DNA of 59,954 bases from the IMG/VR virus record IMGVR_UViG_3300020724_000008, positions 1 through 59,954 of that record; one strand, written 5' to 3'. This DNA is from a virus (Duplodnaviria; Caudoviricetes). The translations under genes were made by a program, and so were the position numbers. Of this stretch, positions 46,563-51,046 are shown in pieces. Under the pieces are notes generated by a model. That model worked only from the letters and a program-made list of their open reading frames with translations. It was not told the origin of the DNA and did no database searches. Each line of letters opens with the position of its first letter. Position 1 is the first letter of the stretch.

Positions 46563-46658
46563 GTTGTGTCCTCGGTGGTTTTGCGCCAATAGCGCGTTTT
46601 TAAAACATGGTGGCAAGTTGCCGACCATAAAAGTCGTGGCAAGTTGCGGATCTTCCGG

Positions 46659-46771
46659 TTTTTTTTTTTTTTTTTTTTTTTTTTTTTTTTTTTTTTTTTT
46701 TTTTTTTTTTTTTTTTTTTTTTTTTTTTTTTTTTTTTTTTTTTTTTTTTTTTTTTTTTTTTTTTTTTTTTT
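46659..46771. other. 113-nt poly-T run, probably an assembly or sequencing artefact
   Basis: Uninterrupted homopolymer next to a tandem repeat. Confidence 0.6.
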
Positions 46772-46790
46772 GATCGTGACCTTATGGCCC

Positions 46791-46997
46791 CGACCCTCTG
46801 GCCGGCGACCCTCTGGCCGGCGACCCTCTGGCCGGCGACCCTCTGGCCGCGACCCTCTGGCCGCGACCCTCTGGCCGATCATGAATAAATATCAACCATG
46901 ACCCGCGCGCCGCGACCCTCTGGCCGCGACCCTCTGGCTGGCGACCCTCTGGCCGCGACCCTCTGGTCACAACCCTCTGGCCGCGACCTTTTGGTCG
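46791..46997. repeat. 14/15-bp tandem repeat CGACCCTCTGGCCG(G)
   Basis: About 12 copies in two blocks of 6 separated by ~35 nt. Confidence 0.85.
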
Positions 46998-47024
46998 AAC
47001 GCCCAGCCCTTAAAGCTGCATCAA

Positions 47025-47210
47025 TCACCTTTCTTGAATCGGTTCAATTTTAACGACAGTGCGCCTCTCTAAATGGGGGACCGCCTTGAGCGCCGCCATG
47101 ATTGCTGAATCACGATCGACAGCCTCAACAATTACAACCGCTCTATGAGTATCTGACCAACCGATCGAACCAACCAAAGCACCCCTCACTACGCATTCGT
47201 ATTTATTCAT
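47025..47210 (-). CDS. Hypothetical early protein
   Basis: GAGGGG RBS; VIVEAVDRDSAI motif. Confidence 0.55.
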   Translation of the reverse strand: MNKYECVVRGALVGSIGWSDTHRAVVIVEAVDRDSAIMAALKAVPHLERRTVVKIEPIQER

Positions 47211-47211
47211 T

Positions 47212-47691
47212 TTAGCATCCCCTCAGCAAATCATCCAGCACACCGTCGTTTGATGGCACACAATCACGCCGCGCCGCATAGATGGACACGCCCGCCCGCG
47301 CACAATATTCAGTTCGTTGCCGCACCGATAACGATTCCCAAAACGCCGCCGCCTCCTCAGACTCCAGCTCGCTCAGATGCGCCTCATCAATAACAGGATA
47401 ATCCTCAAGCGCGCCTGCAATCTCATCAGCAATTTGGAGCGCTTTATCATTATCTTGATGAATAGCAATCCACTCAACCCAGCCGCAGAGAAAGTGATCC
47501 TCAGAAACCACCTGCACAGTCTCAGACTCGCCGCCAATCAAATCCAACCCACGGATAAAATTCGATCGTTCCAGCGCGCTGCTATCACGATTTTGGCTCA
47601 AAAAAACATAGGTGGCAGGCCATACCGCGCCCATATAATAACGCGGCATTTGCCATAATTTTAAATTTTCTGGCTTATAAATATCTGACAT
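47212..47691 (-). CDS. Conserved hypothetical early protein
   Basis: GAGG RBS; RDSSALERSNF, H..CGWVE, LEDYPVIDE.HLSELE. Confidence 0.7.
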   Translation of the reverse strand: MSDIYKPENLKLWQMPRYYMGAVWPATYVFLSQNRDSSALERSNFIRGLDLIGGESETVQVVSEDHFLCGWVEWIAIHQDNDKALQIADEIAGALEDYPVIDEAHLSELESEEAAAFWESLSVRQRTEYCARAGVSIYAARRDCVPSNDGVLDDLLRGC

Positions 47692-47767
47692 ATTCGCACC
47701 TCGCAAACAGGCATAATTGCCCCCGACTGGTCACACGCTACCGCATGACCAGCCAATGACAATCCGC

Positions 47768-48400
47768 TCAGTAATAACGCGATCCGTTAGCCAAAAATCG
47801 ACTATCATCATCGTCGAGCAAATATTCACGCGCGCACTTTTCGCTGGTTTCGTAATCGTACGAATCGCTCAATTTTTGATAAATCAGGTCTGCAAAATCA
47901 CGGAAACATTGTTTAAACGCGTCAAAATCAAATGAGCTGGGATAGCCCTCGATATCAAACGCCATACAACCAGAGTGATAGTAGTGACCTGAATGTTTAA
48001 TGCGCGCGGTCAATTTGTAAAACGCGCGCCGCTGTATATCCTGCAACTGTTGGACAATCCCATGCAAATCCGTATCTGCCGGCGCGTGTTTTTTAACCGC
48101 AGCAAGCGCGCCCTTTTTATATTCATACGAGCCGTCAAAACACGCGCCATCACCCTGCGACCAAAAACCAGACCAGTAAATTGACGTACGCCAGCCCGTA
48201 GACCCGTCACCCCGCGTTGTTTTACGCATCCTCAGATCAAGCCCGATCAGCTCGCCAATATCAGCGCAGTGATCCAGTAACCAATCCGGATCAAAATACT
48301 CGCCTGCAGACTGGCAGTATTTTTCAATGACGCGCGTTTGCGCCTCCTCTGATAATTCATTAAATTTAAAAACCTGAATTTCTCGCACAATTGTGTCCAT
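47768..48400 (-). CDS. Conserved early protein of phage/plasmid leading regions
   Basis: AAGGTG RBS; VFKFNELSEEAQ, IYWSGFWSQGDGACF, IYQKL...YDY. Confidence 0.7.
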   Translation of the reverse strand: MDTIVREIQVFKFNELSEEAQTRVIEKYCQSAGEYFDPDWLLDHCADIGELIGLDLRMRKTTRGDGSTGWRTSIYWSGFWSQGDGACFDGSYEYKKGALAAVKKHAPADTDLHGIVQQLQDIQRRAFYKLTARIKHSGHYYHSGCMAFDIEGYPSSFDFDAFKQCFRDFADLIYQKLSDSYDYETSEKCAREYLLDDDDSRFLANGSRYY

Positions 48401-48495
48401 TATTACACCTTTATTCCTAAAATTATTGCCGCGCCCATACGCGCCCGATTATGGCTAATGCTATCATTGTTTACTGGATCAAACATAGCCGCCCC

Positions 48496-49192: not shown

Positions 49193-49291
49193 TCAAACCC
49201 TCCCAAAACACAGATTTAAAATCCAGCCCCAGACCGCGCCAAATACAGCCACGACGGCGCCAAACATTGCCCAATCAATCGGCCTCAGCAT
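49193..49291 (-). CDS. Small membrane peptide
   Basis: 32 aa, single hydrophobic segment, fills the gap between genes. Confidence 0.35.
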   Translation of the reverse strand: MLRPIDWAMFGAVVAVFGAVWGWILNLCFGRV

Positions 49292-49587
49292 TTTAAAAAC
49301 ACCATTAAAACCGCGATAAAACAAACCGCAATCGTAACAGTCTCGACGTCGCGCGACCTTTGCACATCCGCCCACAAATCAGCAACACGATCCCAAACAG
49401 GCCGCCGCACAGGCCGCGCCTGATATATAACCTCAATATCGTCCTGATTAGTCACGATAACCACGCGATACGTTCCCACCAGTGACCGACCAAACGCGCA
49501 CGCGTCAGACAGCCCGCACACCTCAGCGACTAGCTCAAAACCATCACCAGCGCCAAAATCGCCAGAAATGCAAAAATTATCACGCAT
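49285..49587 (-). CDS. Hypothetical early protein (paralog of 49580..49795) with C-terminal TM
   Basis: GGGGG RBS; F.ISGDFG...SDACAFGR. Confidence 0.55.
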   Translation of the reverse strand: MRDNFCISGDFGAGDGFELVAEVCGLSDACAFGRSLVGTYRVVIVTNQDDIEVIYQARPVRRPVWDRVADLWADVQRSRDVETVTIAVCFIAVLMVFLKC

Positions 49588-49795
49588 GACAAAACCCCCG
49601 CGCCTGATATTCTGCAACCACATTGACCAGCCACGACCCATCAAATTCCAGTACCGAAATCGCCTGATAATCGCAATCAGGATCACCCGCGCGCACCCGC
49701 GCAAACGCCCGCGCATCTGATTCATTGTCAAATGAATCCAAAAATGATTCCGTATCATTGCCAAAATCGCCAAAAATATCAAAATGATTTACCAT
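49580..49795 (-). CDS. Acidic hypothetical early protein
   Basis: AGGAG RBS; F.IFGDFG...SDARAFAR. Confidence 0.6.
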   Translation of the reverse strand: MVNHFDIFGDFGNDTESFLDSFDNESDARAFARVRAGDPDCDYQAISVLEFDGSWLVNVVAEYQARGFCHA

Positions 49796-49844
49796 TATAA
49801 ACACTCCTAAAACATTGGCGCGACCGTAGCCGCGCCTGATTAAA

Positions 49845-50030
49845 TCACGCAACAACAGACTCGATAGACCCGCGCGCTGCACGATCAGCCCGCAACGCAA
49901 CCAACGCCGCATCCCTCACAACCTCTGTTAAATAATGTGTGACGCGCACATCAACCCGCACGCCATCGACGTAATCAGACACAATAACCGCACAGGTATG
50001 TCTCAGCAATTCGACCGTAAAATTTAACAT
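49845..50030 (-). CDS. First early gene, hypothetical
   Basis: AGGGG RBS downstream of early promoter. Confidence 0.55.
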   Translation of the reverse strand: MLNFTVELLRHTCAVIVSDYVDGVRVDVRVTHYLTEVVRDAALVALRADRAARGSIESVVA

Positions 50031-50074
50031 GATAGCACCCCTATATAAATCAGGACAAAACGCCCTGATACGTT

Positions 50075-50105
50075 ATTTATAGCGCGATTATTAAAATGTC
50101 GTCAA
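50075..50105 (-). promoter_or_regulatory. Early sigma70-type promoter
   Basis: Minus strand TTGACG...GCTATAAA resembles the alphaproteobacterial housekeeping consensus; followed by hairpin ATCAGGGCG-TTT-TGTCCTGAT. Confidence 0.6.
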
Positions 50106-50207
50106 TCCAAATTCAAACAAATCGCGCTCAAATAAATTAACTCAGTCCCTGTTAATTTGACCCGTCAATAACTGGCACTAAAAAACGGAGTCCGTTTATT
50201 ATATGCG

Positions 50208-50905
50208 CCCAGCCGTTCAGCCGTTCAGCCGGGCAGGATCCAGCCGTTCAGCCGTTCAGTCACCCAACCGGATAACCTGACCACCTGACCAGCCGTTCAG
50301 CCGACCAGCCGCCCAGCCGGATAACCTGACCACCTGACCGCGAGACTGTCCGATTGTCCGGCGATCCAGCGCGACGACCGCGACGACCGCGACCGCGACC
50401 GCGACCGCGACCGCAACGATCCAGCGCGACCGCGACCGCGACGATCCAGCGCGACCGCGACCGCGACGACCGCGACCGCGACGATCCAGCGCGACCGCGA
50501 CGACCGCGACCGCGACGACCGCGACGATCCAGCGCGACGACCGCGCGACGATCCAGCGCGACCGCGACCGCGACGACCGCGACCGCGACCGCGACCGCGA
50601 CGATCCAGCCGATCAACCGCCCAGCCGATTAGCCGCCCAGCCGACCAGCCGACCAGCCGACCAGCCGACCAGCCGCCCAGCCGACCAGCCGACCAGCCGA
50701 CCAGCCGACCAGCCGCCCAGCCGGATAACCTGACCACCTGACCGCGAGACTGTCCGGTTGTCCGGCGATCCAGCGCGACGACCGCGACGACCGCGACCGC
50801 AACCGCGACCGCGACCGCGACCGCGCGACGACCGCGACGACCGTGACCCCCCACCCTCGACGGCTCATCGCATTTTTGAGACCCCCGCCACCCCCCACCC
50901 CCCGA
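50208..50905. repeat. Composite low-complexity repeat array, probable genome-terminus region
   Basis: (CGCGAC)n, (CCAGCCGA)n, CAGCCGTT repeats, CCGGATAACCTGACCACCTGACC x3, C-runs. Confidence 0.8.
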
Positions 50906-50963
50906 CTTGCCGCGCCCACACGTTCTATACCCTCAACCCTCAAAAATTTTTCAGAGATAAGTT

Positions 50964-51046
50964 TTAGACATGTTGTCTAATAGAGAAGCCCCGACACCCC
51001 TCAAATTTTTAAATTTTTACATTTTAAACTTTTGACATCTTGTCTA
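50964..51046. promoter_or_regulatory. Two GACA-N3-TGTC palindromes upstream of the gcrA/terminase operon
   Basis: TTAGACATGTTGTCTAA (50964) and TTGACATCTTGTCTA (51032); TTGACA also at 51088. Confidence 0.6.

Follow-up and report, generated by a model that had tools for sequence, protein, structure and literature searches.

Why should a word of three nucleotides be almost erased from one short stretch of a phage genome that uses it freely everywhere else? The question is raised by the IMG/VR record IMGVR_UViG_3300020724_000008, whose 59,954 nt (the whole stretch analysed, hereafter the window) make up most of the genome of an uncultured freshwater tailed phage with a GC content of 48%. Between about 47 and 50 kb, eight small minus-strand genes (g1 to g8; Table 1) lie between two tandem-repeat arrays, array A and array B, with a long poly-T run beyond array A. 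The original prediction, made from the letters alone, was that 46656-50984 is completely free of GAAG/CTTC and poor in AAG/CTT. The gap is real: from a CTTC starting at 46652 to a GAAG starting at 50985 neither word occurs, a gap of 4333 nt in a window that holds 511 such sites and whose next-longest gap is 741 nt. The counts that went with the prediction were reproduced as well, with 13 GAAG/CTTC in the first 600 nt and 15 AAG/CTT in 47040-50200, and the boundaries of the desert match poly-T and array A on one side and array B on the other. The depleted units are AAG/CTT and GAA/TTC, not GAAG/CTTC, and the depletion acts at the level of double-stranded DNA.

Depletion of AAG/CTT and GAA/TTC at the DNA level

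Part of the gap carries no information: about 980 of its 4333 nt are homopolymer or tandem array, where the absence of a word is trivial, and the informative part consists of about 3.0 kb of genes and spacers. By a Poisson approximation, the gap has a lnP (natural logarithm of its probability) of about -30.7, whereas the most extreme tetranucleotide gap in most of 17 comparison loci lies between -4 and -8. The exception among these loci is an AAAA/TTTT-free stretch in L011, with a lnP of about -20. It occupies positions 6447-10893 of a 62.5-kb IMG/VR contig, 4.4 kb around a g6 homologue of 39% identity, and may simply be a GC-rich island.

GAAG/CTTC itself is not an independent signal, because the trinucleotide counts of the region lead to an expectation of only 2.3 copies. 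Measured against the rest of the window, 47000-50200 contains 19 AAG/CTT where 105 are expected (0.18-fold), 45 GAA/TTC where 122 are expected and, more weakly, 45 AGA/TCT where 80 are expected. AAG is low whatever base precedes it, A, C, T and G alike. A 2.5-kb sliding scan reached its minimum in the window at 4 AAG/CTT versus 80 expected (z -8.5, a 20-fold loss); in 26 comparison loci the same scan reached minima of z -2.5 to -6.8, and the words concerned were mostly rich in AT or GC.

Two codon-aware nulls define how much of this loss could follow from the encoded proteins. In null A, the eight proteins were kept and their codons were redrawn from the usage of 19 long reference genes; in null B, the block's own synonymous codons were permuted. 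Over the eight genes, AAG+CTT was observed 16 times versus 71.9±6.4 in null A and 48.0±4.6 in null B, GAA+TTC 42 times versus 90.8±6.4 and 64.0±4.5, and GAAG+CTTC not at all versus 19.2±3.4 and 9.4±2.4. None of 2000 shuffles reached any of these observed values in either null. Both nulls lie far above the observed counts, which rules out amino-acid composition and codon usage as causes, and the outcome that would have spoken against the original prediction, counts near expectation or set by amino-acid composition, is contradicted; sliding-window and codon-aware controls alike uphold the depletion. When the 32 strand-symmetric trinucleotides are ranked by depletion, AAG/CTT comes first (z -9.3) and GAA/TTC second (z -7.6); AGA/TCT stands at z -4.2. 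On the sense strand, AAG occurs 10 times, CTT 6, GAA 26 and TTC 16, each below both nulls, and the loss extends over both strands, all three frames, codon junctions and non-coding DNA. Avoidance of a toxin or RNase site in mRNA is ruled out, because the two strands are affected alike.

Codon choice in the block is changed in several directions at once. TTC encodes 1 of 42 Phe (98% TTT), CTT 3 of 61 Leu, AAA reaches 84%, and GCG encodes 59 of 87 Ala (68% versus 21% elsewhere). The predicted shift of Glu codons towards GAG is borne out at 59% in the block versus 27% in the 19 reference genes; AGG rises to 11% of Arg codons, and ATG/CAT is mildly low (z -3.3). The replacements (GAA to GAG, TTC to TTT, CTT to CTG or TTG) are too varied in kind to form one mutational signature. 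Host-like codon adaptation was considered and rejected: it could give GCG and CGG but not 98% TTT and 84% AAA.

Gradient along the block and persistence in relatives

The depletion is strongest beside array B and fades towards array A. AAG/CTT occurs at 0 per kb in g1 and g2, 3.3 in g3, 6.1 in g4, 0 in g5, 6.3 in g6, 10.4 in g7 and 21.5 in g8, versus 32.8 per kb in the rest of the window; the non-coding leader upstream of g1 (50031-50209) also stands at 0. A Kolmogorov-Smirnov comparison with uniform spacing over 47211-50209 gave p = 0.04, and the same trend is seen in the relative L021.

A metagenome scan with g6 yielded 57 loci. Two of them, L019 and L020, represent the phage of the window itself (96-99.9% nucleotide identity). 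L021 matches it over 2.7 kb with 94% identity but without most of g7, and L022 matches over g6 with 80% identity, its g7 largely missing. All four keep the depletion, L021 with 9 AAG/CTT in 3413 nt versus 96 expected from base composition and L022 with 11 in 1222 nt versus 37 expected. Homologues at 53% identity or less do not: AAG/CTT density is normal or high in L023 (g6 53% identical) and in L024-L034. We then placed the observed number and spectrum of changes randomly on the window sequence in 2000 simulation runs. With 146 substitutions, L021 has 8 AAG/CTT versus 20.9±3.5 simulated (0/2000 runs as low), and with 153 substitutions L022 has 10 versus 16.4±3.4 (fraction 0.032). The sites themselves turn over, with 5 shared between the window and L021, 4 found only in the window and 3 only in L021. 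Because distant homologues are normal and the close relatives fall below simulation, the AAG/CTT bias arose within the close lineage and is maintained there by continuing selection.

No GAAG/CTTC desert or comparable trinucleotide loss was found in the portal relatives L002-L010 (36-65% identity), searched with flanks of up to 10 kb on each side; L001 and L006, which are near-identical short contigs, were left out of this comparison. The feature may be restricted to the close lineage; alternatively, these relatives may have their early regions elsewhere in the genome.

A chimeric join is excluded on the right, where contigs of two other assemblies, L020 and L078, cross array B and its flank. 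At the left, poly-T junction, no crossing contig was found among the independent contigs: L019 stops at 46790, and an IMG/VR pattern scan was empty. Further IMG/VR scans, with the protein encoded at 46170-46562 and with the GcrA-like protein, brought up L078 as the only new locus. Of the words sampled from 45500-52000, each of the 24 listed sequencing runs contains a fraction of 0.80-0.97. In L078 array B is shorter; L021 has related 8-mer arrays and, at the array A end, a different, 19-mer array. Strain variants, read from assembled Logan contigs, include one in runs X16 and X19 in which 47723-48536 (g6) is replaced by 40 nt. Variation between strains is cassette-like, affecting 47295-47628, 47723-48536 and 50210-50850.

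Explanations for the emptied block

The reading we favour, as possible though short of probable, is that the block represents leading or early DNA from which a short motif, read by a host defence, has been purged. What is said below on which DNA enters first, on early expression, on the defence involved and on the part played by the arrays and poly-T is what we infer. The 3.7-kb block between the arrays would be one operon of eight small, fast-evolving genes, read on the minus strand from about 50.1 kb to 47.0 kb. Selection against AAG/CTT continues in its DNA, and would act more weakly against GAA/TTC and AGA/TCT. If this block were exposed in the cell before the phage counter-defences act, a host defence reading a very short word would act mainly on it. 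Each escape mutation would then erase one more copy, until almost no targets were left, above all where exposure lasts longest. The best candidate defence would be type I CRISPR-Cas, with the protospacer adjacent motifs (PAMs) AAG for type I-E and GAA/TTC for type I-C. Entry would proceed from the array B end, given 0 per kb there and near-normal density at the far end, and the arrays and poly-T may be boundary, pause or terminal-repeat-flanking elements. Such a course would be modelled on the first-step-transfer (FST) DNA of T5 and on T7-like podoviruses, whose leading end enters slowly. Doubtful to us is the more specific proposal of a staged or slow entry in which the first 3-4 kb carry counter-defence or take-over genes and are scrubbed of the I-E and I-C PAMs that both interference and the acquisition of spacers require, with the arrays and the 113-nt homopolymer as entry-pause or terminal-repeat boundary signals.

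The original prediction had also proposed that the motif is one read by a host defence. The DNA-level depletion and the selection seen in relatives lend that claim partial support, and AAG is indeed a type I-E PAM (PMC4246573, Table 1, which lists AAG for type I-E and GAA for type I-C; here and below, statements cited to a paper or preprint rest on the parts of its text available to us). The target word is scarce in one segment (0-10 per kb in g1-g7) and present elsewhere (32.8 per kb), and, as in published PAM avoidance, the loss affects both strands and goes beyond codon usage and sub-words; that a defence is the reader of the word is the step we infer.

Motif avoidance is a main strategy of this phage. 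In the window, CCAGG/CCTGG (CCWGG) occurs once versus 96.7 expected, GAAGAC/GTCTTC is absent versus 17.0 expected, and AAGCTT (17.1 expected), ATCGAT (16.5), GTCGAC (15.2) and ATTAAT (13.1) have no copies at all. GATATC (2 versus 19.9), CCGCGG (1 versus 18.3), CGGCCG (5 versus 33.0), TGCGCA (1 versus 16) and GGACC (15 versus 43) are likewise rare. This resembles the avoidance of restriction sites, often palindromic words of 4-8 bp, and it runs genome-wide here (CCWGG at 1 versus 97, several 6-mer palindromes at 0-2 versus 13-20). The word lost from the block is different, a non-palindromic trinucleotide purged only locally, and AAG/CTT is shorter than any restriction site known to us. A local purge of a 3-nt word becomes intelligible if that segment alone is exposed, because words of 5-6 nt can be removed everywhere and a 3-nt word cannot.

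Known systems offer partial likenesses. In T5, the FST genes are read towards the end and are followed by untranslated repeats (bioRxiv 10.1101/866236), and the FST DNA lacks EcoRI sites according to the same Davison preprint. A type I-E CRISPR system of E. coli stops T5 only through FST protospacers, with escape mutants altered in the PAM or seed (PMC5389539). The layout is shared: a few kilobases of small genes on one strand, then an untranslated repeat region (iss, 9140-10149, in T5; the 641 nt of array B here). A repeat-dense untranslated region thus lies at the inner boundary in both, and array A with poly-T lies at the other boundary here. GC-rich words (CGC, GCGC) are enriched in T5 FST DNA relative to the next 20 kb, as they are in the block: comparing 1-9140 with 10220-30000 of T5 (AY543070, L076) gave CGC/GCG 339 versus 86, GCGC 53 versus 5.5 and AGA/TCT 187 versus 392, GCGC being nearly missing from the 20 kb after the FST. 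The differences are as plain. For T5, a siphovirus of 122 kb, a terminal repeat of 10 kb and two-step entry are proven, whereas here both would be putative; the virion genes here are distantly epsilon15/BPP-1-like (portal 36% identity), and no homologues of A1, A2 or dmp were detected.

T7-like leading ends, headed by gene 0.3 in T7, are variable and are said to carry anti-defence genes, and a gradient that follows the distance from one end is what would be expected if entry were slow and coupled to transcription. The T7 record has short tandem arrays at 174-340, next to its 160-bp terminal repeat; the arrays here may flank a terminal repeat by that analogy. A literature search for these short T7 arrays found nothing. 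In Murciavirus, only the type I restriction-modification motifs in the first-injected region matter (PMC12455610). Unlike those phages, where a few copies of a bipartite site of 6-8 nt are at stake, the block has lost a 3-nt word about 5-fold on average and 20-fold over 2.5 kb. Genome-wide PAM depletion (Kupczok and Bollback 2014; PMC4246573) involves the same words, GAA/TTC for I-C and AAG for I-E, on both strands and with codon-aware nulls, and the idea was extended to P. aeruginosa I-F in 2025 (PMC12174588). Depletion in print is whole-genome and small (log-ratio differences about 0.04-0.16; PMC4246573), and in the available text of PMC12174588 the words 'early' and 'fold' do not occur. Here, by contrast, the genome outside the block has a normal density, and the loss, local and graded, is enclosed by arrays.

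Several observations weigh against early DNA purged of a defence motif. That the depleted word is a known PAM is a post hoc match, many trinucleotides being PAMs of some system. GAG and AGG function as PAMs in E. coli I-E interference (PMC4246573, Table 1), yet the block keeps both and replaces GAA by GAG, so that not all interference-proficient variants are avoided; this retention speaks against the kind of broad I-E PAM known from E. coli but leaves a strict AAG untouched. For GAA/TTC, the simulations show no significant constraint (L021 40 versus 42.5±4.0, fraction 0.31; L022 fraction 0.08). In T5 FST DNA, AAG/CTT stands at 292 versus 380 expected, 0.77-fold compared with 0.18-fold here. 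The X16/X19 variant is deeper than the window-type contigs at that place, and its 40 nt contain CTTC and three CTT. The genes after the block are not all co-oriented, and T7-style transcription-driven entry could thus carry in the minus-strand block alone. A portal scan of genome contigs returned a single contig of a metagenome-assembled genome and identified no host. Finally, a defence reading leaves an excess of GC-rich words unexplained. With codon usage fixed, CGCG occurs 50 times versus 30.8±4.0 and GCGC 48 times versus 29.4±3.7 (over null A, with its reference codon usage, the enrichment of both is about 2.3-fold), and GCGCGG occurs 15 times on the sense strand versus 6.5±2.1, in all frames, and once antisense. 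Over 47000-50200, CGCG stands at 57 versus 14.7 and GCGC at 56 versus 20.8 expected from the rest of the window (about 3-4-fold), and CCGCGC at 18 on the plus strand versus 1 on the minus strand, while CCGG and GGCC are 2-4-fold low despite this excess. In the 32-trinucleotide comparison, homopolymer AAA/TTT and alternating CG are enriched.

The strand symmetry of the purge, its gradient and its array boundaries would be met equally well if the phage had an early nuclease of its own that degrades host DNA at a very short site containing AAG/CTT, a site that the leading segment must lack while the rest arrives later. A model of this kind, with A1 and restriction sites in first-step DNA, was set out for T5 by Davison (bioRxiv 10.1101/866236), and none of the eight genes here has an assigned function, which leaves room for such an enzyme. 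We consider it unlikely: comparison of the eight proteins with Pfam, PHROGs and NCBIfam brought up no nuclease domain, our literature searches found no phage enzyme of this specificity, and a 3-nt site would expose the other 56 kb, at 32.8 per kb, to cutting unless entry were strictly two-step and the enzyme were shut off. AAG/CTT and GAA/TTC might instead be core contacts of a protein that binds, silences or modifies DNA, whether a host nucleoid or silencer protein or a phage protein such as the methyltransferase encoded at 33130-34074; the block would have to escape this protein so that host RNA polymerase can transcribe it immediately. The purge of the promoter leader fits this, as do the N6/N4 methyltransferase and GcrA-like regulator that the phage encodes and the 2.4-fold denser GANTC in the block, and the CGCG/GCGC enrichment suggests a second sequence preference. 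It is distinctly unlikely in our judgement, however, as a regulator site would not demand near-total removal across 3 kb of coding DNA. Also counting against it, we know of no bacterial silencer or methyltransferase with AAG/CTT as its recognition word.

A physical or replicative need of last-packaged, first-ejected or terminally repeated DNA, involving triplex or R-loop tracts or a primase trinucleotide, would account for the loss of every phase of a GAA/TTC repeat (z -9.3, -7.6 and -4.2, as above) together with the gain of AAA/TTT homopolymer and alternating CG. The trinucleotide shifts of T5 first-step DNA are partly alike (Pearson r 0.44 over 32 trinucleotides, p 0.011), a modest likeness that codon adaptation in the pre-early genes can explain. 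Trinucleotides standing alone form no triplexes, long GAA runs that would show the hazard are missing from the rest of the genome, and no mechanism is offered for the gradient along the operon, which together make this account very unlikely. An origin outside selection, as a foreign compositional island, a mis-assembly through low-complexity sequence or a local mutational bias, is extremely improbable. Codon usage does differ broadly in the block (GCG at 68% versus 21% of Ala), its left junction is a 113-nt homopolymer that no independent contig crosses, and its cassettes differ between strains. Yet no natural codon bias pairs 98% TTT with 68% GCG, the depletion crosses codon junctions beyond the block's own usage (null B), and the replacements are too diverse for one mutational signature. 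Homologues elsewhere lack the bias, and no donor profile emerged (no megablast match in 50,697 records). The bias persists although each relative differs by about 150 substitutions, L020 and L078 span the right junction, and the words of the region recur in all 24 runs.

It is already known that defence targets are kept out of the DNA that enters first. Our literature searches did not find a trinucleotide as the unit of avoidance, a loss of 5-fold overall and 20-fold over 2.5 kb, a gradient along an operon, confinement between tandem arrays and a homopolymer, or a case in a distant epsilon15/BPP-1-like phage. Whatever the mechanism, a 5- to 20-fold trinucleotide loss maintained by selection over 3 kb of coding DNA is unusually strong. 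If the block is early DNA purged of a defence motif, it would provide a sequence-only marker both of the first-exposed DNA of a phage and of the short motif read by host immunity, and the laboratory finding on T5 first-step DNA would become an evolutionary footprint visible in metagenomes. The eight genes would then be candidates for anti-defence or take-over functions, and short tandem arrays and a long homopolymer would be tied to the control of genome entry in a phage group not studied for it. Should the scrubbing of PAMs be the cause, this would be the first natural near-complete local PAM erasure and would centre CRISPR pressure in nature on first-entering DNA.

Parts of the block and of the genome

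The block and its boundary elements are listed in Table 1. Array B, the upstream boundary of the purged block, includes a 139-nt duplication, and arrays A and B have a CGCGAC core in common. The eight genes carry Shine-Dalgarno-like sequences. Two sigma-70-like matches lie on the minus strand at 50116-50087 and 50058-50029; they are weak promoter candidates, as the scan of 45000-51800 gave 10 sites versus 6.8±2.4 in shuffles. The minus strand of the 8-mer array reads GCTGGTCG, which resembles the E. coli Chi. A Chi-like reading of this array and of GCGCGG was set aside; its orientation fits the poly-T-side end, opposite to the gradient.

Table 1. Coordinates of the purged block and its flanking elements in the window, in order from the array B side
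Feature	Position	Strand	Description	AAG/CTT count
Palindromic 17-mer TTAGACATGTTGTCTAA	50964..50980		further 15-17-mer copies or variants start at 51031, 45225, 45418 and 45435	
Array B	50210..50850		non-coding, GC 0.73, 641 nt; 8-mers (CCAGCCGA and variants) and 6/9-mers (CGACCG...)	
Leader	50031..50209	-	AT-rich, non-coding, GC 0.38; upstream of g1	0
g1	49845..50030	-	61 aa	0
g2	49580..49795	-	71 aa, acidic N-terminus	0
g3	49285..49587	-	100 aa, hydrophobic C-terminus	1
g4	48864..49190	-	about 108 aa, start uncertain (GTG 49190 or TTG 49196)	2
g5	48496..48861	-	121 aa	0
g6	47768..48400	-	210 aa, phrog_5162 (annotated as function unknown)	
g7	47212..47691	-	159 aa, weak phrog_4313 and phrog_3906 matches	5
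g8	47025..47210	-	61 aa, last gene of the block	almost normal
Array A	46785..46988		about 14 copies of a 14-15-mer (TGGCCGCGACCCTC); downstream boundary	
Poly-T	46659..46771		113 uninterrupted T (poly-A on the gene strand), between array A and the next minus-strand gene	

The five TTAGACATGTTGTCTAA copies flank the whole minus-strand block from 45.2 to 51.0 kb and are likely to be regulator (operator) or promoter sites. Apart from phrog_5162 for g6, the Pfam, PHROGs and NCBIfam searches of the eight proteins gave no usable family match; for g2, they were partly run on the longer open reading frame 49580-49912. In the Caulobacter phages CcrBL9 and CcrSC, g6 homologues are located within the annotated terminal repeats; others are found in Pseudomonas and Acinetobacter phages. 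The phrog_5162 family has invariant residues that include a YWSGFWSQGDG block. The AlphaFold model of g6 has a predicted local distance difference test (pLDDT) score of 92.3. Compared with the PDB, g6 had 0 sequence matches and its model had no structural match at E <= 0.001, and only uncharacterised viral matches were found. The label 'antitoxin of toxin-antitoxin stability system' attached to g6 is an automatic Atlas name, and we did not use it.

A megablast of 46000-52000 against 50,697 phage records gave zero matches, and the phage has no close relative among these deposited genomes. Its portal is 36-38% identical to BPP-1 and epsilon15-like podovirus portals. The window further encodes RusA, a SNF2 helicase, DUF2800, an Enc34-type ssDNA-binding protein, the N6/N4 DNA methyltransferase, a family A DNA polymerase, dCMP deaminase, ThyX, a primase-helicase and the GcrA-like regulator. 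No tRNA gene was found in the window and no single-subunit RNA polymerase gene was seen there; no reverse transcriptase gene, as diversity-generating retroelement (DGR)-type mutagenesis would suggest, was noticed, and no search was aimed at one. The sequencing runs are labelled freshwater (22/24) and freshwater-sediment (2/24) metagenomes, with no RNA run among the 24 listed. The large terminase (52650-54174) is split over two adjacent, overlapping open reading frames, one with the N-terminal (ATPase) and the other with the C-terminal (nuclease) domain. The GcrA-like regulator gene, at 51123-51680, lies just outside the purged block. GANTC occurs at 3.75 per kb in 47000-50200 and at 1.59 per kb outside and, by a rough estimate from base composition, is under-represented genome-wide.

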